Shown: piece after piece, positions 4,549 to 25,160 of the stretch
Layout of the letters: each line of letters begins with the position of its first letter
Numbering within the stretch: position 1 is the first letter of the stretch
NCBI GenBank assembly: GCA_045592865.1
Contig: JAZNVP010000015.1
Coordinates: forward strand, 1 to 56,048
DNA: 56,048 nt
Reading direction: 5' to 3'
Origin: Oscillospiraceae bacterium
Lineage (GTDB): Bacteria; Bacillota; Clostridia; Oscillospirales; JAGBHD01
Notes under the pieces: generated by a model
What the model saw: only the letters and a program-made list of their open reading frames with translations
Database searches by the model: none
Told to the model about the DNA's origin: nothing
Translations under genes and position numbers: made by a program

Positions 4549-5514
4549 ATGATAAAAAGTGAACTCATAAATAAACTTCGCAAAATCACCCCCGAAGAAA
4601 AATCAATTCTGGAGGGAAAAGGCATTGATAAAAGCATCTATATGAGCACCTCTTCTAAAGGCGCGATAGACGTTGTTGATTTTTCATACCTCACAGAAAA
4701 GGGTAAACTTATCGATATCCGTCCTCACACAAGGTTCGTCCATTTCCCGAAGCATAGGCATAATTTTGCTGAACTCGTTTATATGTGCGAGGGCAAGACC
4801 ACCCATATAATCGGAGATAAAAGGATAGAACTCTGCGAGGGTGAACTTTTATTCTTAAGCCAGAACTCCATTCAGGAAATTCTCCCCGCAGGTGAAAACG
4901 ATATCGCGGTCAACCTCATTATAAGACCGCAGTTTTTCGAAAAGGTTCTGAAGCTTTTGGGCAGCACGAATAACCTTATCAGCGAATTTCTGATAGGCTG
5001 TCTCGGCGGTAACACCTCTGCCGATTTTCTGCATTTTAAGGTCTCGGGCATTCTCCCCGTTCAGAACCTTATGGAAAATATGATCTGGTCGCTAACAAAC
5101 AACCAGCCCAATAAAAGAAGCATAAACGAAACCACCATGAGTCTTCTGTTTATGCAGCTTCTTAACCTCACCGATAAAATCGATATCGGCAAAGACTCTC
5201 CCGAAGAAAAGATTTTCATTAAGGTTCTCGACTACATAGAGAAAAACTACCGTGACGGGTCTCTCTCGGCTCTTTCGGAGGAACTTGGCATCGAAATATC
5301 GGCTCTTAGCCGTGTTATAAAGAAAATATCGGGGTTGACCTTCACCGAACTTATGAAGAAAAAACGTCTTAATCAAGCCTGTTGGCTTCTTAAGAATACT
5401 AAGTTCTCAATAGACGAGATCGCCTTAAACGTAGGATATGAAAACAAAAGTTATTTCTATCGGATTTTCGAAGAGATTTACGGTAAAACGCCCTCCGCTT
5501 ATAGAAAAGATTAA
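4549..5514 (+). CDS. AraC-family transcriptional regulator (cupin sensor plus HTH); probable rhamnose regulator
   Basis: N-terminal cupin-like segment (HRHNFAELVYMCEG) and C-terminal AraC HTH (VGYENKSYFYRIFEEIYGKTPSAYR). It lies immediately upstream of rhaBAD. Confidence 0.8.
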   Translation: MIKSELINKLRKITPEEKSILEGKGIDKSIYMSTSSKGAIDVVDFSYLTEKGKLIDIRPHTRFVHFPKHRHNFAELVYMCEGKTTHIIGDKRIELCEGELLFLSQNSIQEILPAGENDIAVNLIIRPQFFEKVLKLLGSTNNLISEFLIGCLGGNTSADFLHFKVSGILPVQNLMENMIWSLTNNQPNKRSINETTMSLLFMQLLNLTDKIDIGKDSPEEKIFIKVLDYIEKNYRDGSLSALSEELGIEISALSRVIKKISGLTFTELMKKKRLNQACWLLKNTKFSIDEIALNVGYENKSYFYRIFEEIYGKTPSAYRKD

Positions 5515-5528
5515 AATATTTTCGCAAG

Positions 5529-5569
5529 AAAGGACACTTTTTAAATCAAAAAGGGTCCTTTTATTTTTT
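5529..5569 (+). terminator. Rho-independent terminator after the AraC regulator
   Basis: Long hairpin AAAGGAC...CTTTTT / AAAAAG...GTCCTTT followed by TTATTTTTT. Confidence 0.65.
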
Positions 5570-5606
5570 ATTTGGATATTATATAATCGTTATGAGGTGA
5601 AAGATA

Positions 5607-7004
5607 ATGAAAAGATATTGGTTGGCAGTTGATATCGGCGCTTCAAGCGGACGCCATATCCTTTCTCATATTGAAAACGGAAAACTCGTTACCGAAGAGA
5701 TGCACCGTTTCACTAACGGTATTTCTAAAAATAACGGTCATTTCTATTGGAACACCGATTACCTTTTCTCAGAAATTCTTACAGGTATGAAAAAATGCAC
5801 CGATGCAGGAAAAATCCCCCTCAGCGTTGGTATTGATACCTGGGGAGTTGACTATCTTCTCCTTGACGAAAATGATAACAAGCTCGACGAAGCAGTCGCC
5901 TACCGCGATAGCAGAACCGAAACCATTCCCGAAAAGGTTTTCGAGATCATTCCCGAAAAAGAGCTTTACAATGAAACGGGAATTCAGAAACAAAACTTTA
6001 ACACCATATATCAGTTAATGGCAGATAAACTTTTCCGCCCCGAACTTTTAGAAAAGGCAAAAACAATGCTCTTTATGCCCGACTATCTCCATTTCAGGCT
6101 CTGTGGTGTTAAATGCGCGGAATACACTATTGCGAGCACCTCTCAGCTTTTAAAACCCGATAAGTTCGATTGGCATAAAGACTTAATTAAAAAACTCGGA
6201 CTACCCGAGGATATTTTCCCGCAAATTAAAACACCGGGAACCGTTCTCGGAAGTCTTCTCCCCGAAATAGAAAAAGAGGTCGGATTTAACTGCAAGGTTA
6301 TTATTCCTCCATCTCACGATACTGCCTCTGCCGTTTTGGGAACACCTTTTGCAGACGGGAATATCTATATAAGCTCGGGCACCTGGTCGCTTATGGGTAT
6401 AGAATCCCGAGACGCTATCTGCAGTGAGGAAAGCAGAAACTGCAATCTCACTAACGAGGGCGGATACGAGCACCGCTTCAGATACCTCAAAAACATAATG
6501 GGGCTTTGGATGATTCAGAACGTTAAGCGGGAGCTTTCAGACAAATATTCTTTCTCAGAACTTTGCGAAATGGCAGAAAAGGAAAGTATTTCCTCGGTTG
6601 TTGACTGCAACTCCAATAAATTCTTGGCCCCTGAAAGCATGATAAACGCCGTAAAAGATTTCTGCTTAGAAACAAAGCAAGAGGTTCCCGAAACTCCCGG
6701 CGAAATAGCAAGAGTAATCTATCGAAGCCTTGCTATTTGCTACAAAGACGCGGCTGAACAGATAGAGGAAATAACAGGCAAAACCTTCGGCGGTATAAAC
6801 ATCGTTGGCGGCGGTTCCAACGCCGATTACCTTAACCGCCTTACCGCTCTCTATACGGGTAAGACCGTTTACGCAGGTCCTTCCGAAGCCACCGCGATCG
6901 GCAACATTGCTTGTCAGATAATTGCATCGGGGGATAAAAAAGGCATTGAGGACGTTAGAAAACTTATTGCCGATTCGACTGATATAAAAATTTACAATCC
7001 ATAA
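5607..7004 (+). CDS. rhaB: Rhamnulokinase
   Basis: FGGY-kinase N-terminus (AVDIGASSGRHIL), WGVDY, and matching length. First gene of the rhaB-rhaA-rhaD order. RBS GAGGTGA. Confidence 0.9.
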   Translation: MKRYWLAVDIGASSGRHILSHIENGKLVTEEMHRFTNGISKNNGHFYWNTDYLFSEILTGMKKCTDAGKIPLSVGIDTWGVDYLLLDENDNKLDEAVAYRDSRTETIPEKVFEIIPEKELYNETGIQKQNFNTIYQLMADKLFRPELLEKAKTMLFMPDYLHFRLCGVKCAEYTIASTSQLLKPDKFDWHKDLIKKLGLPEDIFPQIKTPGTVLGSLLPEIEKEVGFNCKVIIPPSHDTASAVLGTPFADGNIYISSGTWSLMGIESRDAICSEESRNCNLTNEGGYEHRFRYLKNIMGLWMIQNVKRELSDKYSFSELCEMAEKESISSVVDCNSNKFLAPESMINAVKDFCLETKQEVPETPGEIARVIYRSLAICYKDAAEQIEEITGKTFGGINIVGGGSNADYLNRLTALYTGKTVYAGPSEATAIGNIACQIIASGDKKGIEDVRKLIADSTDIKIYNP

Positions 7005-7014
7005 AGGAGGCATT

Positions 7015-8265
7015 ATGAATACATATTATAACTACGCAAAAGAGTGTTACGCTAAGATCGGCGTCGATACCGATCTTGCCATCAAAAAGTTAGAAGGCCT
7101 TAAGATCGCCATCCACTGTTGGCAGGGCGACGACGTTACGGGCTTTGACCACGACGGTCCTTTAACCGGCGGAATTCAAACAACCGGTAACTATCCGGGC
7201 AAGGCTTCGACTCCCGAAGAGCTTATGGCGGATATCGACAAGGTTCTCTCCTTGGTTCCCGGTAAGCACAAGATAAATCTCCACGCTTCTTACGCAATCT
7301 TTGAAGAGGGCGAATACGTTGACAGAGACGCTATCGGCCCCCGCCACTTTGAAAGATGGGTTGCGTTTGCTAAAGAGCGCGGGCTCGGTCTTGACTTTAA
7401 CCCCACATTTTTCGCTCATCCCAAGGTTAAGGACGGGCTCACCCTTTCTTCACCCGACGATGAAACACGACGTTTCTGGATAGAACACGGAAAAAGATGC
7501 TTGGAGATTGCAGAGTATTTCGCAACCGAACTTTCTGAGCCCTGCGTTGTTAACTTCTGGATCCCCGACGGATATAAGGATATTCCCTCTGACCGTCTTG
7601 CACCCCGCCGCCGTTTTGCCGAGTCTCTTGACGAGATCTTATCGATAAACTATGACAAAGAAAAGGTTTACGTTGCGCTCGAGTCTAAGGTGTTCGGAAT
7701 CGGCCTTGAGTCGTATACCGTTGGTTCTAATGAGTTCTGCCTCAACTACGCAGCAACAAGAGGGGTTCTCTCCCTTATGGATAACGGCCACTACCATCCC
7801 ACCGAAGTGGTTTCGGATAAGATTCCCTCGCTTCTTCTCTTCAGCGACAAGATAGCGCTTCACATCACCCGTTCGGTCAGATGGGATAGCGACCACGTTG
7901 TTATCTTTGACGACGAAACGAAGGAGATCGCAAAAGAGATTGTCAGAAATGACGCGCTCGACAGAGTCTTTGTTGCGACCGACTATTTTGATGCAAGTAT
8001 TAACCGAATTGCCGCTTGGGTAATCGGACTCAGAAGCGTTCAGAAGGCATTTTTATATGCACTTCTCTGCCCCAATAAAAAACTCCAAGAGCTTCAGGAA
8101 AAAGGAAACTTCACCGAGCTTCTTATGATGCAGGAGGAACTCAAAACCTATCCCTTTGATGCAGTTTGGAAGATGTTCTGCGAAAAGAACGGTGTTGCAG
8201 GAGATGAATCCTGGTTTAAAGAGGTTGAAAAATACGAGAGAGAGGTATTAAGTAATCGTGAATAA
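7015..8265 (+). CDS. rhaA: L-rhamnose isomerase
   Basis: 416 aa with IHCWQGDDV and the HYHPTE metal-site region. RBS AAAGGAGG. Sits between rhaB and rhaD. Confidence 0.9.
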   Translation: MNTYYNYAKECYAKIGVDTDLAIKKLEGLKIAIHCWQGDDVTGFDHDGPLTGGIQTTGNYPGKASTPEELMADIDKVLSLVPGKHKINLHASYAIFEEGEYVDRDAIGPRHFERWVAFAKERGLGLDFNPTFFAHPKVKDGLTLSSPDDETRRFWIEHGKRCLEIAEYFATELSEPCVVNFWIPDGYKDIPSDRLAPRRRFAESLDEILSINYDKEKVYVALESKVFGIGLESYTVGSNEFCLNYAATRGVLSLMDNGHYHPTEVVSDKIPSLLLFSDKIALHITRSVRWDSDHVVIFDDETKEIAKEIVRNDALDRVFVATDYFDASINRIAAWVIGLRSVQKAFLYALLCPNKKLQELQEKGNFTELLMMQEELKTYPFDAVWKMFCEKNGVAGDESWFKEVEKYEREVLSNRE

Positions 8266-9088
8266 TATTAAAACCGCAGCATTTGTTAAAGGCTTTTGCA
8301 AAATGGCTAACGACGGTTGGCTCCTCGGTTTTCACGAGAGAAACGGCGGAAACCTTTCATACAGAATTAAGGACGACGAAATAAAATCGGTTTGGGCCGG
8401 TCTCGATTTCTCGGGCGAATGGAAGCCCATCGGCGCCGACGTTCCAACCCTTAAAAATGAGTTTTTCCTCGTAACAGGAAGCGGAAAGTATTTCCAGAAC
8501 GTTTTAGACGACCCCGAGAACAACATCGCAATCGTTGAGGTTGACGATAGCGGCAAGAACTACCGCATATGTTGGGGACTTAAAAGCGGCGGCAGACCCA
8601 CAAGTGAACTTCCGAGCCACCTTATGAACCACGCCGTTAAAAAGGAACTGACAGGCGGCAAACACCGCGTTATCTACCACGCTCACCCCGTTAATATAAT
8701 CGCACTCACCTTTATTCTCCCTCTTGAAGACAAGGTGTTCACAAGAGAGATATGGGAAATGATGACCGAGTGCCCCGTTATATTCCCCGACGGTATGGGA
8801 GTTATTCCCTGGATGGTTCCCGGTGGAATGGACATTGCTATTGAAACAAGCAACCTTATGAAGAAATACGACGTTGCCGTCTGGGCTCACCACGGAATGT
8901 TCTGTTCGGGCGAGGACTTTGATTCCACCTTCGGACTTATGCACACCGTTGAGAAAGCGGCAGATATTCTTATCAAGGTGCTGTCAGTTACCCCTAATAA
9001 ACTCCAGACCATCACTCCCCAAAATTTCAGAGATTTAGCAAAAGCGTTTGGCTTTACAGTCTCCGAAGAATTCCTTTACGATAAATAA
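8258..9088 (+). CDS. rhaD: Rhamnulose-1-phosphate aldolase (class II aldolase)
   Basis: Aligns with E. coli RhaD from residue 1 (NIxxxxFVxGxxKxxxDxWLxGxxERNGGNLSxR). The GTG start overlaps the rhaA stop by 8 nt. Confidence 0.9.
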   Translation: MNNIKTAAFVKGFCKMANDGWLLGFHERNGGNLSYRIKDDEIKSVWAGLDFSGEWKPIGADVPTLKNEFFLVTGSGKYFQNVLDDPENNIAIVEVDDSGKNYRICWGLKSGGRPTSELPSHLMNHAVKKELTGGKHRVIYHAHPVNIIALTFILPLEDKVFTREIWEMMTECPVIFPDGMGVIPWMVPGGMDIAIETSNLMKKYDVAVWAHHGMFCSGEDFDSTFGLMHTVEKAADILIKVLSVTPNKLQTITPQNFRDLAKAFGFTVSEEFLYDK

Positions 9089-9095
9089 AAAATTA

Positions 9096-9131
9096 AGGCA
9101 GAACAGTTCAAACTGTTCTGCCTGTTTTTTT
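9096..9131. terminator. Bidirectional rho-independent terminator (rhaD on plus, lipoprotein operon on minus)
   Basis: 13-bp stem AGGCAGAACAGTT / AACTGTTCTGCCT followed by GTTTTTTT, with an A-run upstream. Confidence 0.85.
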
Positions 9132-9134
9132 ATA

Positions 9135-10961
9135 TCAGTTTGCCTTAAACTCTCCCGAAACCGAGCCGACCGTTATAGTGTAGCTATCCCCCGACTTAAT
9201 ATCGGGGCTACTCAGAATAACCACCTGGAACGAAAGCTCAGGCGCATAAGAAATGATCTCTTTACCCTTACTGTCGGTGAGAGTAATAGTCGTTTTTGCG
9301 GTTTGACTTCCAACGCTTACCGCAATAACACCCTGCTCTGAGCCACTAAAGGACTGCGCCATACCCGAAGCCCCCGTTCCGATAAAGGTTCCGCCCGTAA
9401 TAATTCCGCTCTTATCGTAATCGAGGGTTGCGGTGTCGCCCTGTGTAGGACCGACAACAGTGGTGTGTCCACCCGATATCTCGAGCGTTCCGTTGGCGTC
9501 GAGTCCGTCTCCCGAAGAATTTATATATAGCGTTCCGCCCGAAATCACGATGCTTCCGTTCGAGGATAAAGACATTCCTCCCATTCCGCCCATTCCACCG
9601 GGGCCTTTTCCCATCCCATCAAACATACCATCTCTTCCACCCGTAGTTCCGCTTGAATCGGTTCCACCTGCGGCATTGAGTCCGTCGTCACTTGCAACTA
9701 GTTTTATGTCTCCGCCCGACACATTAATATGAAGCGCCTCAAGCCCTTCATAACTCTCGGTTATATCAATATCTCCGTCGGTTACCGTGAGGGTGTCTTC
9801 CGCGTGACAGGCATCGTCTCCCGAAGATATATTAAAACTTCCACCGCTTATTTTAAGGGAACTGTCCGAGTGAACACTGTCATCTGCAGAATCTATCGTT
9901 ATTTTCCCACCCGATATAGAGATATCGCTCACAGCCTTTAAACCTTTCATGCTCGTGCTCGAGTCATCAGTATCAGTAGTTTCTGCAGTAAGCGCGGTTC
10001 TTCCGGGTCTCATTCCCATTCCGCCTGGGCCGCCGCCCATTCCGCCGAAATCTCCCCAATTATCAGAAGACGCCTTACTGCCGTTCTCACTTCCGCCACC
10101 CGCAGTTACGTTTACTGTCCCGTCAAGAATTTGCATATATGAACCTGCTGAAACACCGTCTCCCTCGGCTTCAATATTAATTTCTCCACCCGAAAAATAA
10201 ATAAATCCGAGAGCCGCTTCATCGGTGTTTTCTGCGTGAATACCGTCTTTTCCCGCTTCAATTTTTATTTTAGTTTCCCCCGTAACGCGAACACTGTCGT
10301 TAACGTCTAACCCGTGAGACGCCGAGGTCACGGTTAAATCTCCACCCGTGAAAACAAGGTCGTCTTTCGCAACAATTCCGTGACCCGCGGGAGAAGAAAC
10401 TGAAAGACTTCCCTTTCCGTTAATTGTTATATCCTGCTTCGAATAGAGCGCTCCGTCGATATTATTTTCGTCGATAGCACTAAAGACACCGCCGTTTGAA
10501 AGATGGTTTTCGCTGCCCTCCGGTAAGGTTATAAACACCTTATCTGCCGAAAGAATATATAAAGGCGCAGAACTCTCACTGTTTATATTAACTCCATCGA
10601 GCACAAGCTGAAGCTTTGCCGTATCCTCAGCATTAACAATTATCATTCCGTCGTTAAGCGAACCCGAAATAATATGCATTTTGTTTTCGGTTATGGTGAT
10701 CCTGCTTCCTTCGATTTTGACGCTGTCCGAACTCGCCGACGCAGAGTTTCCCGTAAGTTTTATGGTTATTGCATCATTTTCGCTGTATTCAGTCCTCTGA
10801 TCGCGTTCGGTAAACATATCCTCGTCTGTTGCCGAGAGCTCTACCGAACCGGAGGAAACAGAACCTTCCGAACTGACGTTTTCCTCTTCTTTAGATTTGC
10901 AACCCGAAAGAACCCCGCAGAGCAAAACTAAAACAAGAATAAAAGGCATTGCCCTTTTCAA
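9135..10961 (-). CDS. Surface lipoprotein with parallel beta-helix repeats (Cthe_2159-like carbohydrate-binding family) and two Gly/Met-rich inserts
   Basis: Lipobox VLSGC follows a K/R-rich hydrophobic signal. Repeated ...I.I.GG.L.V.S..DGI/DGL... turns are present. The likely start is the TTG at 10961, 9 nt after AAGGAGG. The ORF-track GTG at 10970 abuts the SD. Confidence 0.7.
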   Translation of the reverse strand: MKRAMPFILVLVLLCGVLSGCKSKEEENVSSEGSVSSGSVELSATDEDMFTERDQRTEYSENDAITIKLTGNSASASSDSVKIEGSRITITENKMHIISGSLNDGMIIVNAEDTAKLQLVLDGVNINSESSAPLYILSADKVFITLPEGSENHLSNGGVFSAIDENNIDGALYSKQDITINGKGSLSVSSPAGHGIVAKDDLVFTGGDLTVTSASHGLDVNDSVRVTGETKIKIEAGKDGIHAENTDEAALGFIYFSGGEINIEAEGDGVSAGSYMQILDGTVNVTAGGGSENGSKASSDNWGDFGGMGGGPGGMGMRPGRTALTAETTDTDDSSTSMKGLKAVSDISISGGKITIDSADDSVHSDSSLKISGGSFNISSGDDACHAEDTLTVTDGDIDITESYEGLEALHINVSGGDIKLVASDDGLNAAGGTDSSGTTGGRDGMFDGMGKGPGGMGGMGGMSLSSNGSIVISGGTLYINSSGDGLDANGTLEISGGHTTVVGPTQGDTATLDYDKSGIITGGTFIGTGASGMAQSFSGSEQGVIAVSVGSQTAKTTITLTDSKGKEIISYAPELSFQVVILSSPDIKSGDSYTITVGSVSGEFKAN

Positions 10962-10976
10962 AAAAAGCACCTCCTT

Positions 10977-11672
10977 TTAAAGCTCCGACACGGCAGTATC
11001 CTGTCTTGAAACGGTTATTTCAAGATTTCCGTTTCGGCATCTGAATTTGTCTATCATTTCCTTTTCCTTCGATGCGTCTTTCAACGTTACGTTGTAGGTT
11101 AATTTAAAAAGGCTTCCCATATTGGTATTCTTAACGCGCACAAGATCGTGGGAATGAGTGTATTCGTCGAAAATATCGTCAAAAATACCCGAATAATCAA
11201 GGTCCTCAGGAATAACAATAGTGAACACCTTATATACCGCGCCGTTCTTTTTTGCGCCGAAATCAAGTCGGTTATAAAGCATAAATATAAGACTCATAAC
11301 AGCCGTGAAGAGAAATGCAAATCCGAGATAACCCATACCCACAATAAGCCCTGCACCCATCGCTAAAAACAGAGTGCATATCTCTTTCGCGGTTCCGGGA
11401 ACCGAGCGAAAACGAACGAGGCTGAACGCTCCTGCAACCGCAACACCTGTTCCGACATTACCGTTAACGAGCATAATAACAACGCAAACCACCGCAGGTA
11501 AGAGTGCCAACGTTATAACGAAGCTTTTGGTATATCTTGTGCGATACATATATGCAAGCGCCATAACAATACCAAGCAGAAGTGAAAATCCAAGGCAAAG
11601 CAAAAAATCACCTGCGCTTATAACCGACGTTAGTTCCGAATCAAATAAACCTTTAAATAAATTACTGAGCAT
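10977..11672 (-). CDS. DUF4956-family polytopic membrane protein
   Basis: About four TM helices, the signature FSLVRFRSVPGTAKEI, and a soluble C-terminal domain. The ATG at 11672 follows GAGGAGGAAGAG and overlaps the VTC stop (ATGCTCAGTAA). Confidence 0.7.
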   Translation of the reverse strand: MLSNLFKGLFDSELTSVISAGDFLLCLGFSLLLGIVMALAYMYRTRYTKSFVITLALLPAVVCVVIMLVNGNVGTGVAVAGAFSLVRFRSVPGTAKEICTLFLAMGAGLIVGMGYLGFAFLFTAVMSLIFMLYNRLDFGAKKNGAVYKVFTIVIPEDLDYSGIFDDIFDEYTHSHDLVRVKNTNMGSLFKLTYNVTLKDASKEKEMIDKFRCRNGNLEITVSRQDTAVSEL

Positions 11673-12408
11673 AAATCTCTTCCTCCTCATAATCATTTGT
11701 ATCCACGCTTTGCAGCTGCGGAAAAATAAATTTTCTATACGCAGTTCCGTATTTAGAAAAGGACGTTTTATATATCCTTTCGGACGACAGTATCTCTGTC
11801 ATCCACAACGGAATACCTCCCGAGCATTTTATCTCCATCAAGACCTTTCCTTTGGGAAGAACCTCGGTTCCGTCCGCAGAAGAATTGAGCGTCAGATCCT
11901 CCTGTCTGCAAAGAATATTATCGTCAAAGGTAATGCGAAAGTCTGACCCGTCGGACGCGTAATACGCCTCTCTTTCATAGGAAAGAAACAACGTCGGGCG
12001 CAAACCCTTATAGTAATCAAGAAAATAATCTATCTCTTTGGATATCTGGCTTTGCTTCGGGCACTCGCGTTTTCCCGAAAGCCATTCTGCCGCTTCCTTT
12101 GCGGTAAGCGAAACACGCCGCTTGTAAACCACCTTTTTATATTTTTTCTTGAGTTCCACAAATACCGGACTGTTTTCATCCGCTCTTCCGTAACTTCTGA
12201 CACGAAGTTTTTCCTTGTAGATCGGCTTCTCGATAGAACGCCTTATCAAAATATAACTGTCGGTATCGTAATATATATTCCGAATGGTCGTTCTGCCGTA
12301 TTTATCGGGAATCATATATGGTGTGATAGCCGCAAGAATCTTTTGTTTTTGATCGGCATCAAGCATAAACTTCAGTTCATAACGCTTAAATACGGTCTGA
12401 AAAGCCAT
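11662..12408 (-). CDS. Bacterial VTC-domain protein (polyphosphate-polymerase-like triphosphate tunnel fold)
   Basis: FKRYELKFML N-terminus, IRNIYYDTD, KLRVRSY, VFVELKKK, RITFDDN, LMEIK, SFSKYG. This is the pattern of the VTC/CYTH-like family (Pfam VTC, PF09359, from memory). Confidence 0.75.
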   Translation of the reverse strand: MAFQTVFKRYELKFMLDADQKQKILAAITPYMIPDKYGRTTIRNIYYDTDSYILIRRSIEKPIYKEKLRVRSYGRADENSPVFVELKKKYKKVVYKRRVSLTAKEAAEWLSGKRECPKQSQISKEIDYFLDYYKGLRPTLFLSYEREAYYASDGSDFRITFDDNILCRQEDLTLNSSADGTEVLPKGKVLMEIKCSGGIPLWMTEILSSERIYKTSFSKYGTAYRKFIFPQLQSVDTNDYEEEEIYAQ

Positions 12409-12474
12409 AAAAAATCCTCCTGCAGTTTGATGTTATCATTCTACAGAAGGATTATTGAAATTTGATTGAATTTT

Positions 12475-13737
12475 TTAAACTTTAGGCAAGATAACTCTGA
12501 ATTCAACAAGCCCGTTATAGCACCTGACCTCGATCTTTCCCTTATGAGAAGTAACTATAGCCTTTGCTATCGCAAGACCGAGTCCATAACTGTTTCCATC
12601 GTCTTCCCTCGCCTCGTCAACGCGATAAAACCTCTCAAAAAGATGCGGTAGTTTTTCAGGCGGTATCGTCTCTCCCGAGTTAACAACCGATAAAACTGCG
12701 CTGACGCGGTTTTCGGACAAATTTACCGAAACCTCTCTTTTTTCATCGCAATGCCTTATCGCATTATCTATTAGAATAGAAACAAGCTGACCGAGTTTTG
12801 TTTTGTCACCCATAACCGAAATACCGCTTTGGACATCGGTTGAGAGAACTATTCCTTTTTCAAAAGCAACACTCTCAAACGGCAGAATATCTCCCGAAAC
12901 AATTCGGCTTAAATCTAACCTCTCGTTCTCTGTTTTAACGTTTTCGGTTCGCGCAAGTTCTAAAAGTTCTCTAACCAGGTTGCCCATTTTTTCATTTTCA
13001 TACTGAATGTTATCAAGCCACTTGTTATCGCCTATCTCACGCGCCAGAAGTTCCGCATTGGCACTGACAACAGAAACGGGGGTCTTGAGTTCGTGCCCCG
13101 CATCAGAAATAAACTGCTTTTGCTTTAAATAACTCTCTTCAAGGGGATCAACTATCCTTTTTGCCAGATATTTAGCAAGGAAAAACAGAGCTATAAGCAC
13201 GACGCTCCCGAACACCAAGGTGTAACGAAACAAGGTTGTCATACTCTCCTTCATAACGGTGTTGTCCATAAATGCAACGAGGGTGTAGCCCTTCTTCTTT
13301 GCAACCAAATAAAGAAGATTTCCCTTGGTTCCGCGAACGGTTCCCTTCCTTAGAATTTCGGTAGCATATCCTTCGAGAAGTTCTTCTTCAAAGCTTTCGC
13401 GGTCGCCTGAATCGGTTGCAACAACCTCTCCGTTATCCAGAACCGCAACCGAATAAAAGGTGGATAACTTAAAGGAAGGTGAGTTTTCGAAATGCTTCCC
13501 GCCTCGGTCGTTATTCGGAATCGGCTCCATCGCATCGGGCGATATTTCTTCCAAAGGCTCACCCGCAGGAAATTCAGAAAGCTTATGCATTTCTGCGTGT
13601 CTTTCAAGCATTTCAAAGTTTCGGTTAGAAACCTCATAATAACTCGAAGCATATATAACCGCAAGTGTTCCCATAAACAAAAGAACGAGTATCGACATGA
13701 TCGCATAAACGATCTTTCTTCTTGAGCTTTTAAACAT
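12475..13737 (-). CDS. Sensor histidine kinase (two TM helices, extracytoplasmic loop of about 135 aa)
   Basis: H-box SDAGHELKTP, N-box LIDNAIRH, G-boxes GLGLAIAK. The start overlaps the response-regulator stop by 8 nt. Confidence 0.9.
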   Translation of the reverse strand: MFKSSRRKIVYAIMSILVLLFMGTLAVIYASSYYEVSNRNFEMLERHAEMHKLSEFPAGEPLEEISPDAMEPIPNNDRGGKHFENSPSFKLSTFYSVAVLDNGEVVATDSGDRESFEEELLEGYATEILRKGTVRGTKGNLLYLVAKKKGYTLVAFMDNTVMKESMTTLFRYTLVFGSVVLIALFFLAKYLAKRIVDPLEESYLKQKQFISDAGHELKTPVSVVSANAELLAREIGDNKWLDNIQYENEKMGNLVRELLELARTENVKTENERLDLSRIVSGDILPFESVAFEKGIVLSTDVQSGISVMGDKTKLGQLVSILIDNAIRHCDEKREVSVNLSENRVSAVLSVVNSGETIPPEKLPHLFERFYRVDEAREDDGNSYGLGLAIAKAIVTSHKGKIEVRCYNGLVEFRVILPKV

Positions 13738-14413
13738 TTTCGCACCTCAGTTCATATCCAATTCCTCTGACCGCCTTTATCTCGGTCTTTGCGCCAACAA
13801 AACCGAGTTTCTTTCGAGTGAAAGACATATAAACCTCAACGTTATTATATTCGGCTTCATTATCATAGCCCCATATCTTCACCGCAAGTTGCTCACGGGT
13901 CAGTATCTGCCCGTTATTAGAAATGAGATATTCGAGAATTCTATATTCCTTTTCGCTCAGTCTGACACTCTGAGAATTATCCGTGCAGTAAAGGGTTAGC
14001 GTGTTACTGTCAACCGATATATCCCCATAGCAAAGCTTCCCTTGGGTAACACCGAGAGTTCTTCTCGAAAGCGCACGAATACGCGCAAGAAGTTCCTTTG
14101 TCATAAAAGGCTTGGTTAGATAATCGTCTGCCCCGCTATCAAGCCCCTCAACCTTATCGTCAAGTTCCGACTTTGCCGTCAGCATTAATATCGGGGTGCG
14201 AATACCGCTTATTCTTGCCTTTTTTGCAACCTCTAACCCATTCATTCCGGGAAGCATAACGTCGAGAATAGCAACATCATAGATCCCGCTTCTGATAGCA
14301 AACAGCCCGTCAACACCGTTGTCAAAATGATCGACCTCATATTTTTCAAGCCGCAGTATCTCGCAAAGAGCCTCTGCCATTCGCTTTTCATCCTCTATAA
14401 GCAAAAGCTTCAT
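13730..14413 (-). CDS. OmpR-family response regulator
   Basis: Receiver domain (MKLLLIEDE, ILDVMLPGMNG, LTAK) plus a winged-helix C-terminus (RGIGYEL). The ATG at 14413 lies 5 nt after GGAGGTG. The ORF-track start at 14476 is an extension. Confidence 0.9.
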   Translation of the reverse strand: MKLLLIEDEKRMAEALCEILRLEKYEVDHFDNGVDGLFAIRSGIYDVAILDVMLPGMNGLEVAKKARISGIRTPILMLTAKSELDDKVEGLDSGADDYLTKPFMTKELLARIRALSRRTLGVTQGKLCYGDISVDSNTLTLYCTDNSQSVRLSEKEYRILEYLISNNGQILTREQLAVKIWGYDNEAEYNNVEVYMSFTRKKLGFVGAKTEIKAVRGIGYELRCENV

Positions 14414-14436
14414 TACCGCACCTCCGTTCCGTTTTA

Positions 14437-14445
14437 AGTATACCA
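14437..14445 (-). promoter_or_regulatory. Extended -10 element (TGgTATACT) upstream of the two-component/VTC operon
   Basis: The minus strand reads TGGTATACT about 24 nt upstream of the response-regulator ATG. No good -35 is present. Confidence 0.35.
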
Positions 14446-14485
14446 TAAAATATTGAAAATTCATTGAACTTTTCAAGTAAAAAGC

Positions 14486-14513
14486 AAAACGCCCGAAATT
14501 TCGGGCGTTTTTT
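14486..14513. terminator. Bidirectional rho-independent terminator (perfect palindrome)
   Basis: AAAACGCCCGAAA|TTTCGGGCGTTTT, immediately after the stop of the BNR gene at 14516. Confidence 0.85.
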
Positions 14514-14515
14514 AA

Positions 14516-15604
14516 TTAAAGTTCCCAGATTGTATAAAGAAGTGAGGGTTTGCAGTCGTCCTCATATCTCTGGTAATAAACGGTTAAAATCTTTCCGTCG
14601 GGAAGCTCAACCGAACAGGGATATCCAAGATCAGGGTCGCCGGTTTCAGGGAATATAGATAACTGTTCCGACCAGGTCTCTCCGTTATCATAGCTAATAA
14701 CCGCTCTCTCTCCGAAAGGAACGAGTCTTCTGCCGTATGCACAGATTACTGCGCCCGAAGAGTGCTGCATTAAGTGCGGAGGCGCTCCGTCAACACCTAA
14801 AGGCTTCATTTCAGACCAGGTCTTTCCGCCGTCAGACGAGAATGTAATGAAAACGTCCTTATGGGTAGGCTTCGAAGAATAGTCTGAATATCTGATAGCA
14901 CCTAAAAGTCTGCCGTCCGAAAGTTCCATAACATAGGGTTCGCAGAAACATTTAGGATTATAACCCTCAGGGGTGCAGAGCTTAGTTAAATACTCCCAGG
15001 TGTATCCGCCGTCAGTGCTTCTCATTGCGAAGATCCGACCTTCCTCGGGAAGCTCGTCGATAAATTTAGTTCCGAGATAGATAAGTGTTCCGTCCTTGCA
15101 AACGTTAGGACCGTGAGGTGCCGTTATCGGAATTCTCTTAGGCTCGGTCCAGGTAACGCCATAGTCCTCAGAAATAATGTAGAAGGAGCCGCCCTTGCCC
15201 TCTTCCTCACTGAGATGAGTGTAGGTCGCGAGCATACCCATAGTGGGCATAAGCTCTCTGCGGTCGTTTCTACCCTTTATGTTATCATAAAGCCCGTGCA
15301 TATAGCTTTCTTTAGGATGACAGAACCATGTAACAAGCATTCTGCCGTTCCCCATATAAACGATACCTGCATCTCTGTCGTCAAGATATGTATCATTTAT
15401 AACGATCGGAGGGGTCCAGGTTTCTCCGTTATCGCGGCTGATATACATACAGGTCTTACCCCAAGGGCAGATGTGGTGCATTCTCATTCCTGAGTCAACC
15501 GCATATAAAACTCCGTTTTCGTCCTTACAAACGCTACCCCAGGCGTGATAGCGGAACAAGGTTCCGGTGTTTCTGTTAACTATTCCGTGCTTAACTATTT
15601 TCAT
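14516..15604 (-). CDS. BNR/Asp-box repeat beta-propeller protein, sialidase-like fold, no signal peptide (paralogue 1)
   Basis: Five SxDxGxTW boxes (SRDNGETW, SEDYGVTW, STDGGYTW, SSDGGKTW, SYDNGETW). The ATG at 15604 follows AGAAGGA. Confidence 0.75.
   Translation of the reverse strand: MKIVKHGIVNRNTGTLFRYHAWGSVCKDENGVLYAVDSGMRMHHICPWGKTCMYISRDNGETWTPPIVINDTYLDDRDAGIVYMGNGRMLVTWFCHPKESYMHGLYDNIKGRNDRRELMPTMGMLATYTHLSEEEGKGGSFYIISEDYGVTWTEPKRIPITAPHGPNVCKDGTLIYLGTKFIDELPEEGRIFAMRSTDGGYTWEYLTKLCTPEGYNPKCFCEPYVMELSDGRLLGAIRYSDYSSKPTHKDVFITFSSDGGKTWSEMKPLGVDGAPPHLMQHSSGAVICAYGRRLVPFGERAVISYDNGETWSEQLSIFPETGDPDLGYPCSVELPDGKILTVYYQRYEDDCKPSLLYTIWEL
14553..14639. repeat. 87-nt tract that is 86/87 identical to 15762-15848 (copy 1)
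   Basis: Direct comparison of the two 3' coding ends. The single mismatch is at 14588. Flanks on both sides diverge sharply. Confidence 0.9.
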
Positions 15605-15721
15605 GATTAATCCTTCTTTCAAAGCCTTAGGCTTTATTTTACGAAATTATACTATATTTATCCTGTCTTTTAAACTAACTGACAGGACACAAATCAGCAT
15701 ATACGTGTCCGTTTACAAAAT

Positions 15722-16816
15722 TTAGTCAAGGCTCCATATAGTATATAAAATCGAAGGCTTCCAGTCGTCCTCATATCTCTGGTAATAAACGGTTAAGATC
15801 TTTCCGTCGGGAAGCTCAACCGAACAGGGATATCCAAGATCAGGGTCGGAAGCATTATCAAAAATGCTTATTTCTTTATCCCAGGTCTCGCCGCCGTCAT
15901 AGCTTACTATCGCCCTCTCTCCGCACGGCTCCGACCTTTTTCCGAAGGAACAAACAAGCGCACCCGAGGAGTGAAGCATAAAGTGGGGCGGTGTTCCGTC
16001 CGCGCCCGAATAAACGGGATCCGACCAGGTCTTTCCGCCGTCATCCGAATAGGTAAAATAGAAGGAATACACCATCGGACGAACCGAATAGTTAGAAAAT
16101 CTGACCGCGCCGAACAGTCTTCCGCTTGGAAGCTCAATAACGTGAGGTTCGCAAAGTTGACGCGGTTCTACCCCATCAGGCGTCTTAACGCTTCCCGTGT
16201 AGTTCCAGGTGTAGCCACCGTCGGTGCTCTTATATGCGGCTATCTCAAACTGAGAAAGTTCATTACCCTCGGAGTGAAACTCTCTTCCGAGATAAAGAAG
16301 GCTTCCATCCTTAAGATAAGCAGGACCGTGGGGCGAGGTTACAGGAATTCTGACGGGTTCCGACCAGGTAACACCATAGTCATCACTCATCATAACGAAA
16401 GAGCCGCCCTTTCCCTCTTCTTCATTGAGATGAACGAAGGAAGAAACCATTCCCATTGTGGGCATGATCTCTCTGCGGTCGCAACGCCTTTTCATATCGT
16501 CAAAGTCATTATGTAAAGAAACCTTAGCAGGATCGGTAAACCAGGTAACAAGCATCTTGCCGTTTCCCATATAAACGATACCTGCATCACGGTCATCGAG
16601 AAAACTGTCGTGAATAACCATCGGAGGAGTCCAGGTCTCGCCGCCGTTATAACTCTTATACATGACGGTCTTTCCCCAAGGGCAAACGTGTTGCATTCTG
16701 AAGCCCGAGCAAACTGCATATAGAACGCCGTTTTCATCGATGCAAACGCTCGGCCAAGCCTGATAACAGAAAAGTTTGTTTTTCGCTCTGTTAACTATTC
16801 CGTGTTTGTGTATCAT
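15722..16816 (-). CDS. BNR/Asp-box repeat beta-propeller protein, sialidase-like fold, no signal peptide (paralogue 2)
   Basis: Collinear with paralogue 1 (SYNGGETW, SDDYGVTW, STDGGYTW, SDDGGKTW, SYDGGETW). The ATG at 16816 follows GGGAG. The ORF-track start at 16909 is an extension. Confidence 0.75.
   Translation of the reverse strand: MIHKHGIVNRAKNKLFCYQAWPSVCIDENGVLYAVCSGFRMQHVCPWGKTVMYKSYNGGETWTPPMVIHDSFLDDRDAGIVYMGNGKMLVTWFTDPAKVSLHNDFDDMKRRCDRREIMPTMGMVSSFVHLNEEEGKGGSFVMMSDDYGVTWSEPVRIPVTSPHGPAYLKDGSLLYLGREFHSEGNELSQFEIAAYKSTDGGYTWNYTGSVKTPDGVEPRQLCEPHVIELPSGRLFGAVRFSNYSVRPMVYSFYFTYSDDGGKTWSDPVYSGADGTPPHFMLHSSGALVCSFGKRSEPCGERAIVSYDGGETWDKEISIFDNASDPDLGYPCSVELPDGKILTVYYQRYEDDWKPSILYTIWSLD
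15762..15848. repeat. 87-nt tract that is 86/87 identical to 14553-14639 (copy 2)
   Basis: See copy 1. Confidence 0.9.
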
Positions 16817-16859
16817 AAAAAACACTCCCTTCAGAACTATTATAATATAATTTTTATTA

Positions 16860-16904
16860 GAATAAAAGGGACGGAATATGCCACTTTTTTTGGTTTTCCG
16901 TCCC
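16860..16904 (-). terminator. Hairpin terminator candidate after the AraC gene
   Basis: On the minus strand, GGGACGGAA, a 19-nt loop, TTCCGTCCC, then TTTTATTCT. Confidence 0.5.
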
Positions 16905-16909
16905 ACCAT

Positions 16910-17782
16910 TCACTTTTTATAGGCCCTTCTGTAGTCAGCAGGGGTCATCCCGTATTTTTTCTTAAAGGCGATGGAGAAGCCCGACGGAGATAAATATCCC
17001 ACCTCGTAGCTTATCTGTTCCACCGACGTCTTGGTGGAAAGAAGTTTGCTTTCCGCCTTATGAAGCCTTAAATCAATCAGTTTTTCTCTGAAACTCATCT
17101 GATAGGTCTTGTTAAGAATTCTATTCAGCTGCCGCACCGAAAGGCCGAGCGCTTCCGCAAGATCTGCAGCGGTAACGTCATTCATATAATTCTTATCAAA
17201 ATACAGTTCGAGTTTTCTCGATCTTGCGCTTTCGGTATCGGTCTTGCCAAGTGCGAGATTACCCTTTATTTCGCTCTGCGGTTCCATATCAGCGCAAACA
17301 ATTCTTATTAAGGTTATGTAAAACTCCTTAATAAGCGCTTCAAGCATATCATCGCAGGCTATTCTTTGCGAGTTCATCTCTTCATCAAGTTTTCTGATAA
17401 TGCTCACAAACTCGCCCGAATTTCCAACAACAACAGGCTCCGTCAGTCTGTTAAAATGCTCCTCAACGAGAGAATCCTTCTTTCCCTTAAACATAAACTT
17501 AAAGGCATACTTCTCAGCATCATGAGTAAAATAAGCAGTCTTATGGTAGCACATCGGGGGAATAACGCAAACCTCACCCGTTTTCAGAACAAGTTCCTTT
17601 TTCTTGCCCGTCTCAACGATATATTCTCCCGAGCAACATATCTGCACCTCAAAACTCGGATGCTCGTGAATATCCGTGCTGCTTCTGTTGGGAGCAAACA
17701 AATTGGCATCAATAACTGCATTTATCTCGGTATCTGCAACCTTAATAACAACACCGGTATATTTAAAAACTGAATAATCCAC
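16910..17782 (-). CDS. AraC-family transcriptional regulator (cupin plus HTH)
   Basis: C-terminal AraC HTH (VGYLSPSGFSIAFKKKYGMTPADYRR) and an N-terminal cupin-like domain. It lies upstream of, and co-oriented with, the two BNR genes. Confidence 0.8.
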   Translation of the reverse strand: MDYSVFKYTGVVIKVADTEINAVIDANLFAPNRSSTDIHEHPSFEVQICCSGEYIVETGKKKELVLKTGEVCVIPPMCYHKTAYFTHDAEKYAFKFMFKGKKDSLVEEHFNRLTEPVVVGNSGEFVSIIRKLDEEMNSQRIACDDMLEALIKEFYITLIRIVCADMEPQSEIKGNLALGKTDTESARSRKLELYFDKNYMNDVTAADLAEALGLSVRQLNRILNKTYQMSFREKLIDLRLHKAESKLLSTKTSVEQISYEVGYLSPSGFSIAFKKKYGMTPADYRRAYKK

Positions 17783-24563: not shown

Positions 24564-25160
24564 TCATTTCCACCATTCTTTAATCCGTTCTAAAACCTCA
24601 ACAAAATAAAATTTCACCTTAAAGTTTGCGTTTTCTCGGCTAACGGGCTCAAGCAGTGCTAAAGCCTCATCATCCGCGGTGCAGGAAGGAAGGCAAAGCG
24701 GCGGAAAAAGAACGCACCACCAGTTCTTCCCCTTACTTTCTCCAATCTTGACCCTGAGCGCATTGTATCTTCCCGCAGGCATCGTAACGTCACCGTAAAC
24801 CCTCGTTTCAAAAAACATCTCACATATCTCGGCGGTTACCTCTTGGTCCTTCCCCGCTTTTAATATTTCGTCTTTTGCAGCGCTTATTATGAGTTCCATA
24901 TTTTCCTTTGCCAGACTTATCGATTCATCCTTGTCTTGAGAATTTAAAAACAAATCTCCCGTTTCCTTTAAAATGCGGTCGCGCACCAAAAGTTTTAGTG
25001 CCTGATCCTCTTCTGAGTCGGAATTTGCTATAACGTGAAGCCTTAGCGTGTTTTTTCTTATCTCTCTGCAATCTCTTGCAAAAGCGGTGAAATTGAAAAC
25101 AACCACCGAGATTATTAGCCCTAACGCCACCGAAATTCTGAATATGTTTTTTCTTTTCAT
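24564..25160 (-). CDS. spoIIR: Stage II sporulation protein R
   Basis: Signal/TM N-terminus, then LRLHVIANSDSEEDQALKLLVRDRIL and NWWCVLFPPLC, both characteristic of SpoIIR. Confidence 0.85.
   Translation of the reverse strand: MKRKNIFRISVALGLIISVVVFNFTAFARDCREIRKNTLRLHVIANSDSEEDQALKLLVRDRILKETGDLFLNSQDKDESISLAKENMELIISAAKDEILKAGKDQEVTAEICEMFFETRVYGDVTMPAGRYNALRVKIGESKGKNWWCVLFPPLCLPSCTADDEALALLEPVSRENANFKVKFYFVEVLERIKEWWK

Follow-up and report, generated by a model that had tools for sequence, protein, structure and literature searches.

In reviews of polyphosphate (polyP) synthesis, polymerization is assigned to PPK enzymes in prokaryotes and to VTC in eukaryotes. What a VTC-domain protein makes in a bacterium, and where its product goes, is the question raised by a five-gene module on the minus strand of a 56,048-nucleotide contig of an Oscillospiraceae bacterium (GenBank assembly GCA_045592865.1, contig JAZNVP010000015.1), which was analyzed over its full length and is referred to below as the window. 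The module encodes a response regulator (RR), a sensor histidine kinase (HK), a VTC-domain protein, a polytopic membrane protein of the DUF4956 family and a lipoprotein of the Cthe_2159 family. We propose, tentatively and at a little short of an even chance, that it is a sensor-controlled polyP polymerase of the Vtc4 type, to which DUF4956 is an obligate partner and which also acts together with a surface lipoprotein of beta-helix fold. What appears to be new is the bacterial, envelope-spanning and differently regulated setting of a Vtc4-type catalytic core.

Conservation of the module across genomes

Relatives of the VTC protein are numerous: at least 8000 were scored in a word-indexed search, and the named ones are called ‘polyphosphate polymerase domain-containing protein’. 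The frequencies reported here were taken from the best 80 of at least 591 confirmed VTC matches in species-representative genomes and, as these are the closest relatives, they describe the close VTC subfamily; each count uses the loci with enough flanking sequence for the neighbor in question. The 80 loci come from Oscillospiraceae, Acutalibacteraceae, Ruminococcus, Faecousia, Lachnospiraceae, Blautia, Butyrivibrio and the cultured Bianquea renquensis NSJ-32. The results showed that DUF4956 directly follows VTC in 79/79 loci, that a Cthe_2159 homolog follows DUF4956 in 63 of 65, and that a two-component system lies directly upstream in 46 of 60 (31 co-directional, 15 divergent). A cognate HK adjoins in 33 of the 39 fully visible loci, in three different arrangements, and the divergent or downstream-placed kinases align to the window HK including its sensor region (E about 1e-50), whereas unrelated kinases align only from residue 209. 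The junctions are kept as well, with an overlap between VTC and DUF4956 in 64/67 loci (8 nt in 56 of them) and a gap of at most 30 nt between DUF4956 and the lipoprotein gene in 61/64. Identity to the window proteins is 76–82% for RR (co-directional loci), 70–83% for DUF4956, the most conserved protein of the module by this measure, and 63–74% for VTC. The complete RR-HK-VTC-DUF4956-Cthe_2159 block was seen in three unrelated flanking contexts among contigs with precomputed Pfam annotation, and no further conserved gene was found on either side of the module in 82 loci, where the flanks are otherwise unrelated. The arrangement, which recurs in dozens of species and in unrelated contexts, is far beyond chance, and these counts rule out chance adjacency of the genes. 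The co-occurrence across genomes that a preliminary description, made from the window sequence alone, had put forward for checking is borne out among these relatives.

Apparent fusions in the protein library of VTC with DUF4956, of DUF4956 with Cthe_2159 and of DUF4956 with Trans_reg_C (P0389, P0395, P0463, P0465, P0488, P0400) were rejected as Rosetta-stone evidence; they consist of truncated domains throughout, and frameshifts or assembly errors that join neighboring genes are their most likely origin. In each of two metagenome-assembled genomes (MAGs), two module copies lie on separate contigs (L021 and L039; L073 and L074), which suggests paralogous modules in one organism if the binning is correct. 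A published table places a DUF4956 gene of B. thetaiotaomicron beside a DUF2490 gene (BT3498-BT3499), a family listed as putative outer-membrane porin; should a VTC gene lie close by in Bacteroides, the module of Gram-negative species may come with a partner in the outer membrane. The DUF4956 entries in published expression tables for B. thetaiotaomicron and S. mutans give no functional information.

The VTC protein has the ligand residues of Vtc4

The VTC-domain protein (248 residues, positions 11662–12408, minus strand) is basic, with an isoelectric point (pI) of 8.9, and matches PF09359 with an E value of 7.6e-44 over residues 8–226, covering model positions 1–233 of 235. It has no transmembrane segment, in line with its earlier description as a soluble VTC-only protein, and the Pfam search gave no CYTH match. 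Neither SPX nor DUF202 was matched by any of the five module proteins (the DUF4956 protein was searched to E 10). Being without SPX and without a membrane segment, the VTC protein stands outside the architecture of the eukaryotic VTC complex.

In the cryo-electron microscopy study of yeast VTC, the triphosphate ligands are K200, R264, R266, K281, Y359, R361, S457 and K458 and the Mn2+ ligand is E426, all of which are needed in vivo; K458 is the only ligand missing in the inactive Vtc2 and Vtc3, where Ile or Leu stands in its place. A profile of the bacterial family, numbered via the chain offset, matched the Vtc4 crystal chain with R69 at R264, R71 at R266, K87 at K281, K96 at K294, Y144 at Y359 and R146 at R361. 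Profile-profile alignment added R9 at R196, K13 at K200, R158 at R373, E192 at E426, K194 at K428, S218 at S457 and K219 at K458, and hhalign gave a probability of 95% (E 3.5e-8) for the VTC protein against Vtc4 over residues 9–230 of the window protein. For both ends of the alignment fungal Vtc4 fragments were used, and counting through them reproduces the published numbering. All of the mapped residues are invariant among 21 members of the bacterial family, including K219, whose motif SFSKYG aligns with KFSKF of Vtc4. The preliminary description had asked after the tunnel Lys, Arg and Glu residues, and those of Vtc4 are all present. The C-terminal mapping, obtained by greedy profile alignment, is the weakest part; pairwise alignment against the Vtc4 fragments reached z 3.2–3.6 over shuffles, and because this support is modest the equivalents of E426, S457 and K458 rest on the profile-profile alignment. 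Searches of PDB sequences with N- and C-terminal VTC fragments found no relative. In a Foldseek search with the AlphaFold2 model of the VTC protein, the top nine PDB matches were Vtc4, Vtc3 and Vtc2, ahead of CYTH enzymes (E 3e-5 to 2e-3; TM-scores about 0.29); AlphaFold2 models were used for secondary structure only, and Foldseek results from them were treated as weak.

Conserved ligands are no proof of a polymerase, because AtTTM3 shares the tunnel center of Vtc4 yet is a tripolyphosphatase. In AtTTM3 an acidic patch of E2, E4, E90 and E171 forms a second metal site; at these positions Vtc4 has basic residues, which guide the growing chain. The VTC protein could accordingly be a hydrolytic or other tunnel enzyme (a tri- or polyphosphatase, nucleoside triphosphatase or cyclase) in a module that degrades or senses a phosphoanhydride at the membrane. 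Such an enzyme would be in keeping with most characterized bacterial tunnel enzymes, which are hydrolases or cyclases, with the purely hydrolytic activity of AtTTM3, and with E11, a Glu invariant in the bacterial family that falls at the second Glu of the hydrolase ExExK motif, where Vtc4 has T198. Two of the acidic-patch positions, however, map clearly and are basic as in Vtc4 (R9 and K194 for R196 and K428), and a third is probably basic too (K96/R98), the equivalent of E90 being mapped without certainty. With at least two of the four positions basic, a complete second metal site is unlikely. Considering also the strong Pfam VTC match, the lack of a CYTH match and the ranking of Vtc4, Vtc3 and Vtc2 as closest structures, we judge a hydrolytic or other non-polymerase function to be improbable. 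As R9 and K194 are Vtc4-like but E11 is hydrolase-like, we rate the VTC protein as a likely polyP polymerase, with the hydrolase as its alternative.

A remote likeness of the DUF4956 partner to MgtC and ACT proteins

The DUF4956 protein (231 residues, positions 10977–11672, minus strand) matches PF16316 with an E value of 1.4e-13 and 51.4 bits against a cut-off of 30.6, and all 85 diverse relatives match as well; clustering at 50% leaves 3,337 representatives of the family. Among the 85 members, which are 35–58% identical, P59, G81, F88, R89, S90 and G108 are invariant, the signature being AGAFSLVRFRS, while R87 and a C-terminal R-x-R-N-G-N-L turn are nearly so. Five membrane segments were seen by hydropathy analysis, three of them strong and two weaker. 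Loops 43–50 and 87–97 (the RFRS loop), both rich in K/R, are predicted to be cytoplasmic, as is a C-terminal domain with a predicted beta-alpha-beta-beta-alpha-beta order.

No DUF4956 relative was found in PDB sequence searches with a single sequence and two profiles. The most recurrent secondary Pfam match of the family is MgtC, seen in 22/39 and 31/85 members and always below threshold: against the 31.4 bits of PF02308, the window protein scores 8.9 bits (E 2.6), and the best family member reaches E 0.008. In Foldseek the C-terminal domain has a weak likeness to sensors of the PII-like and ACT types (model pLDDT, the predicted local distance difference test score, 61.6). The homologous S. 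intermedius protein is the subject of a preprint from 2024 that agrees with an MgtC/ACT-like view, and from these remote matches and the model DUF4956 looks like an MgtC-like membrane domain joined to an ACT/PII-like cytoplasmic domain. With MgtC/SapB proteins such as Salmonella MgtC it would share a small polytopic N-terminal membrane domain, a C-terminal ACT-like domain, the recurrent sub-threshold Pfam matches and the theme of phosphate, ATP and Mg2+ homeostasis. It differs in its own invariant RFRS signature, and MgtC has no known tunnel-enzyme partner.

This likeness opens a second possibility, which we take as the main rival: the module may be an intracellular polyP synthase whose product stays in the cytoplasm or at the inner face of the membrane. 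DUF4956 would then regulate or tether the enzyme in the manner of MgtC/ACT proteins and respond to a small ligand such as a nucleotide, without being a conduit, and the lipoprotein would be a surface binder of carbohydrate (pectin or cellulose) that shares only its regulation with the other two. The recurrence of MgtC among the secondary matches and the resemblance of the C-terminal domain to ligand sensors fit this possibility; a preprint on Pel loci concurs in stating that polyP ‘may remain in the cytoplasm’, and Cthe_2159 itself has been characterized as a cellulose and pectin binder. However, the linkage to the lipoprotein gene described above, with its short gap kept through three regulator arrangements, is tighter than co-regulation requires, the third partner found elsewhere (CotH) is likewise extracytoplasmic, and none of the MgtC matches passes the threshold. 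An intracellular synthase is in our view possible but doubtful.

The third protein is an acidic surface lipoprotein

The gene after DUF4956 (positions 9135–10961, minus strand) encodes a beta-helix lipoprotein of 608 residues (mature pI 4.2) that matches the Cthe_2159 family (PF14262) with E values of 1.4e-86 and 1.4e-90. It begins with a lipoprotein signal, MKRAMPFILVLVLLCGVLSGC, has the lipobox L-S-G-C and a single N-terminal hydrophobic segment, and a lipobox is found in 64 of 67 homologs. Residues 77–290 are homologous to the Cthe_2159 structure (PDB 4PEU/4PHB; E 4.3e-36). Cthe_2159 of Clostridium thermocellum is a beta-helix reportedly similar to PL9 pectate lyases and able to bind cellulose and polygalacturonate. 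In spite of this clear homology and common fold, the window protein is twice as long as Cthe_2159, lipid-anchored and very acidic, contains Gly/Met-rich insertions, and is encoded beside VTC and DUF4956. All of the homologs are very acidic, with a pI of about 4.2 and some 82 Asp and Glu against 29 Lys and Arg. The Gly/Met-rich segments interrupt the beta-helix at mature residues of about 286–297 and 416–443 (GGMGGGPGGMGM and GGRDGMFDGMGKGPGGMGGMGGM); they are present in 60/62 homologs, mostly at comparable positions where examples were inspected, with a varying Met content.

The composition of the lipoprotein bears on a further possibility, a cation or envelope-stress buffer in which cations (Mg2+, Ca2+ or a transition metal) would be chelated by polyP and the acidic Gly/Met/His-rich lipoprotein, with the kinase sensing metals or the envelope. 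Besides the uniform acidity and the frequent Gly/Met-rich segments, the acidic loop of the kinase, the RppA/RppB and heavy-metal CopR/CopS-type entries among the best sub-threshold NCBIfam matches of RR and HK, and the role of MgtC-family proteins in Mg2+ and phosphate homeostasis would agree with it. Those NCBIfam scores are nevertheless all below cut-off, with PhoB/PhoR and CtrA scoring similarly, no metal transporter or metallochaperone is conserved beside the module, and the low-complexity segments do not keep their Met content from one homolog to the next. Such a buffer would be compatible with the polymerase mechanism that we favor, but we consider it decidedly improbable.

Gene layout and control by the two-component system

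All five genes are on the minus strand between two terminators that fold strongly, as the preliminary description had it, and its three Pfam assignments (VTC, DUF4956 and Cthe_2159) are significant in searches with hidden Markov models; none of these three proteins is covered by an NCBIfam model. The gene junctions that it listed were read directly from the minus strand. RR runs into the start of HK, an overlap of 8 nt (ATGTTTAA); 11 nt (ATGCTCAGTAA), preceded by GAGGAGGAAGAG, are common to the VTC stop and the DUF4956 start; and the lipoprotein gene starts with TTG 15 nt past the DUF4956 stop, preceded by AAGGAGG. From this reading the likely starts are ATG 14413 for RR, ATG 11672 for DUF4956 and TTG 10961 for the lipoprotein, and not those of the longest open reading frames. 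The tight coupling claimed for the whole set stands for RR/HK, VTC/DUF4956 and DUF4956/lipoprotein but fails between HK and VTC, where a 66-nt spacer holds a promoter-like element and a hairpin, both conserved.

The RR gene (227 residues, positions 13730–14413, minus strand) encodes an OmpR-family regulator with Response_reg (1.2e-26) and Trans_reg_C (1.4e-21) domains, and the HK gene (420 residues, positions 12475–13737, minus strand) a kinase with HisKA (1.9e-12) and HATPase_c (4e-21) domains. A receiver with a winged helix, a HisKA/HATPase_c kinase and overlapping genes make this an OmpR/PhoB-type pair. Two transmembrane segments of HK (residues 9–27 and 174–192) flank an acidic loop of about 145 residues with no known domain, the large extracytoplasmic loop of the earlier account, and RR has no transmembrane segment. 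Both proteins score below every named NCBIfam equivalog cut-off (sub-threshold matches are RppA/RppB, CopR/CopS-type, PhoB/PhoR and CtrA); the pair is therefore not assignable to a named system, and these matches point to no particular signal.

The exact direct repeat TTCAAT-N5-TTCAAT occurs twice in the window against 0.01 expected, both times at a module promoter, and is almost confined to module promoters in 568 kb of related loci. The first predicted RR box, TTCAATGAATTTTCAAT (positions 14452–14468, minus strand; 11-bp period), lies at the RR promoter, where the -10-like TATACT (14442–14437) follows 9 nt downstream. The exact box is found at this promoter in 24/31 orthologous loci, with TATAAT 9 nt on in 19 of the 24. 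The second, TTCAATCAAATTTCAAT (12454–12470, minus strand), occupies the -35 position of an internal promoter in the HK-VTC spacer, with the -10-like TAGAAT at 12443–12438; TTCAAT-N5-TTCAA(T/G) is present in this spacer in 35/38 co-directional loci, and TACAAT, the counterpart of TAGAAT, follows 10 nt on in 29 of the 35. Both promoters thus resemble those that PhoB/OmpR-type regulators activate without a -35 box, following pho-box logic, in having a direct repeat of 11-bp period in the -35 region, 9–10 nt before a good -10 element. In contrast to that logic, the target promoter here is embedded in a hairpin that would sequester a downstream ribosome-binding site. To our knowledge the TTCAAT repeat is not recognizable from any described regulon.

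The 66-nt HK-VTC spacer is conserved between species, and after the box and the -10 element come, in this order, an inverted repeat (CCTCCTGTAC...GTACAGGAGG) with the VTC Shine-Dalgarno sequence as its 3′ arm, a T-run and the ATG. In the window the hairpin spans 12416–12450 (minus strand), with the 5′ arm CCUUCUGUAG at 12450–12441, the 3′ arm CUGCAGGAGG, including the VTC Shine-Dalgarno sequence, at 12425–12416, and a U-run at 12414–12409. It folds with -20 kcal/mol (z -3.98), and none of 200 shuffles folded equally well. In an alignment of 29 distinct sequences 97.9% of cells are paired, and four of the ten pairs show compensatory double changes; none of 500 shuffles reached the observed values, and slid controls paired 36–55%. 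RNAalifold predicted the identical stem. One-sided changes are mostly C-to-U in the 5′ arm, by which G-U pairs are kept only in the sense RNA, and A31, A32 and T33, loop positions that belong to the -10 box, are conserved though unpaired. Since the 3′ arm is the VTC Shine-Dalgarno sequence and the U-run comes next, transcripts that read through from the HK gene would be terminated or untranslatable; we infer that the hairpin either hides the VTC ribosome-binding site or terminates read-through. With the internal promoter, this reading divides what had been described as a single five-gene operon into a putatively autoregulated RR-HK unit and a three-gene structural unit that would be controlled by the RR box, with the covarying hairpin between the two.

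Loci with a divergent regulator (L005, L029, L030, L036, L038, L048, L050, L055, L060, L063, L066, L070, L082 and L086) have no TTCAAT box in the RR-VTC intergenic region and share another AT-rich motif upstream of the -10 box, ...TTAAATGNAATTAAAA... and ...TTTAAGGTT..., which implies a candidate second operator type for a related sensor family. Among them is the cultured B. renquensis NSJ-32 (L050), which has this version of the module, without TTCAAT operator or hairpin. A third exact TTCAAT-N5-TTCAAT box was seen in two loci (L016:5278-7658 and L031:672-3057), at about 65–70 nt from a downstream two-gene ABC unit that itself immediately precedes the RR gene. This unit, a 547-residue FtsX/MacB-like permease and an ATPase, is found in 2/37 co-directional loci and not in the window, and ‘GGGRGDKGMF’ in the extracellular part of the permease resembles ‘GGRDGMF’ of the lipoprotein.

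Proposed mechanism

In the mechanism that we favor, the loop of about 145 residues would let the kinase sense an extracytoplasmic signal, and the phosphorylated regulator would bind TTCAAT-N5-TTCAAT in place of a -35 box at its own promoter and at the internal VTC promoter. Read-through transcripts from the kinase gene would carry the complete hairpin and be terminated or not translatable, whereas transcripts from the internal promoter would begin within the hairpin loop, at about 12431–12435 if transcription starts some 7 nt past the -10 box, so that the ribosome-binding site stays accessible. The VTC protein, in complex with the translationally coupled DUF4956, would extend a polyP chain through its tunnel using a nucleoside triphosphate and a divalent metal. 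DUF4956, its Arg-Phe-Arg-Ser loop and ACT/PII-like domain facing the cytoplasm, would hold the polymerase at the membrane and either conduct the chain outward or gate synthesis. On the outer face, the acidic pectate-lyase-like lipoprotein would receive or organize the polyanion, probably via bridging divalent cations; the binding of the polyanion polygalacturonate by Cthe_2159 supports such a role. Delivery of the product to the cell surface is inferred from the strict gene linkage to a surface lipoprotein.

Several points weigh against this mechanism. DUF4956, which the preliminary description took for a possible channel, has no detectable likeness to the membrane channel of eukaryotic VTC, and its best remote lead, MgtC with an ACT/PII-like domain, is a type of protein known for regulation and not a transporter. 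When the genes of the related pair were deleted singly in S. intermedius, there was almost no phenotype in aggregation or Pel production, and our literature search found no biochemical study of any bacterial VTC protein. The tunnel retains the hydrolase-like E11 beside its Vtc4-like ligands. The lipoprotein is so acidic that binding of polyP would need bridging cations. The AlphaFold2 models are poor (pLDDT 61.6 for DUF4956 and 51.4 for VTC) because the alignments are shallow (70–84% identity), and the sampling of 80 loci was confined to the closest VTC relatives.

A more specific form of the mechanism is a synthase-exporter, in which the polymerase docks on a DUF4956 oligomer, the RFRS loop passes the chain across the membrane and a cation-loaded lipoprotein holds polyP at the surface, under a dedicated sensor. 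We think this form unlikely. If true, it would be convergent with yeast VTC, with an unrelated membrane part, and would represent the first dedicated bacterial route to surface or extracellular polyP; by extension, the CotH-linked versions would supply polyP to an extracytoplasmic kinase.

Relation to known systems

Yeast Vtc4/Vtc3/Vtc1 and the bacterial module have in common the Pfam VTC tunnel domain, the nine triphosphate- and Mn-binding residues, including the equivalent of K458, and the obligatory pairing of the catalytic protein with a membrane protein. The bacterial protein, in contrast, is without SPX and without a fused or Vtc1-type (DUF202) transmembrane domain, lacks the eukaryotic insertion of about 35 residues (387–420) and has E11 for T198. 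The module also differs in its unrelated membrane partner DUF4956, in two-component control as opposed to inositol pyrophosphates and, as proposed, in a product that would reach the cell surface and not the vacuole.

In bacteria, VTC and DUF4956 have been described, without a function, among the accessory genes that accompany Gram-positive Pel loci (Streptococcus, Clostridia, Bifidobacterium), CotH and DUF4832 being further members of the set, and CotH is likewise found with VTC-domain genes in C. perfringens NELoc-2. These CotH-VTC-DUF4956-DUF4832 clusters resemble the window module in the VTC and DUF4956 pair and in an extracytoplasmic third protein. In the window the third partner is instead the Cthe_2159 beta-helix lipoprotein and not a CotH kinase, there is no pel or DUF4832 gene nearby, and a dedicated two-component system with its own operator is present; no CotH or pel gene was found beside the module in the window or in L001-L006. 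The literature search found no published function for the VTC/DUF4956 pair and no description of a version with a two-component system, operator, hairpin and Cthe_2159 lipoprotein. The view of an undescribed system with no function shown thus holds as to function but has to be narrowed, the pair having been noted before at Pel loci; it is the regulated lipoprotein version that appears undescribed.

Among the species-representative genomes, those of gut and rumen Clostridia contain at least 591 confirmed matches of the close VTC subfamily. Activity of the enzyme would give these abundant gut anaerobes a second, membrane-linked polyP route, possibly one that delivers to the cell surface, and surface polyP, if it exists, could affect cation binding, the biofilm matrix, host barrier signaling and the cycling of phosphate in gut and rumen. 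DUF4956, Cthe_2159 and the CotH-linked clusters of Pel loci and C. perfringens NELoc-2 would also gain a first functional handle. Two parts are testable in themselves, the putative operator TTCAAT-N5-TTCAAT and the proposed promoter-in-hairpin switch.

Boundaries and genomic surroundings

The upstream boundary of the module is an intrinsic terminator (positions 14486–14511, minus strand; 11-bp stem, -17.6 kcal/mol, z -4.9, then a T-run). It folds strongly, as had been described, with the correction that it ends the upstream BNR-repeat gene. Downstream, a bidirectional intrinsic terminator (9096–9123; 12-bp stem, -22.1 kcal/mol, z -7.1) is common to the module and a convergent rhamnulose-1-phosphate aldolase gene. 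The latter belongs to an L-rhamnose catabolic operon (4549–9088, plus strand) with an AraC regulator, an FGGY kinase, a RhaA isomerase and the class II aldolase, which converges on the module. On the other side (14516–17782) are two tandem paralogous BNR_2/sialidase-like genes (368 and 395 residues) and an AraC-family regulator, which are not kept beside the module in the other genomes compared. No ppk, ppx, pst or phoU is among the genes of the 56-kb contig, and its other genes, coding for AraC regulators, AddAB, SpoIIR and housekeeping functions, are unrelated to the module. The window is chromosomal and, with SpoIIR at 24564–25160, from a spore-former; its nearest relatives are Acutalibacteraceae and Oscillospiraceae MAGs.

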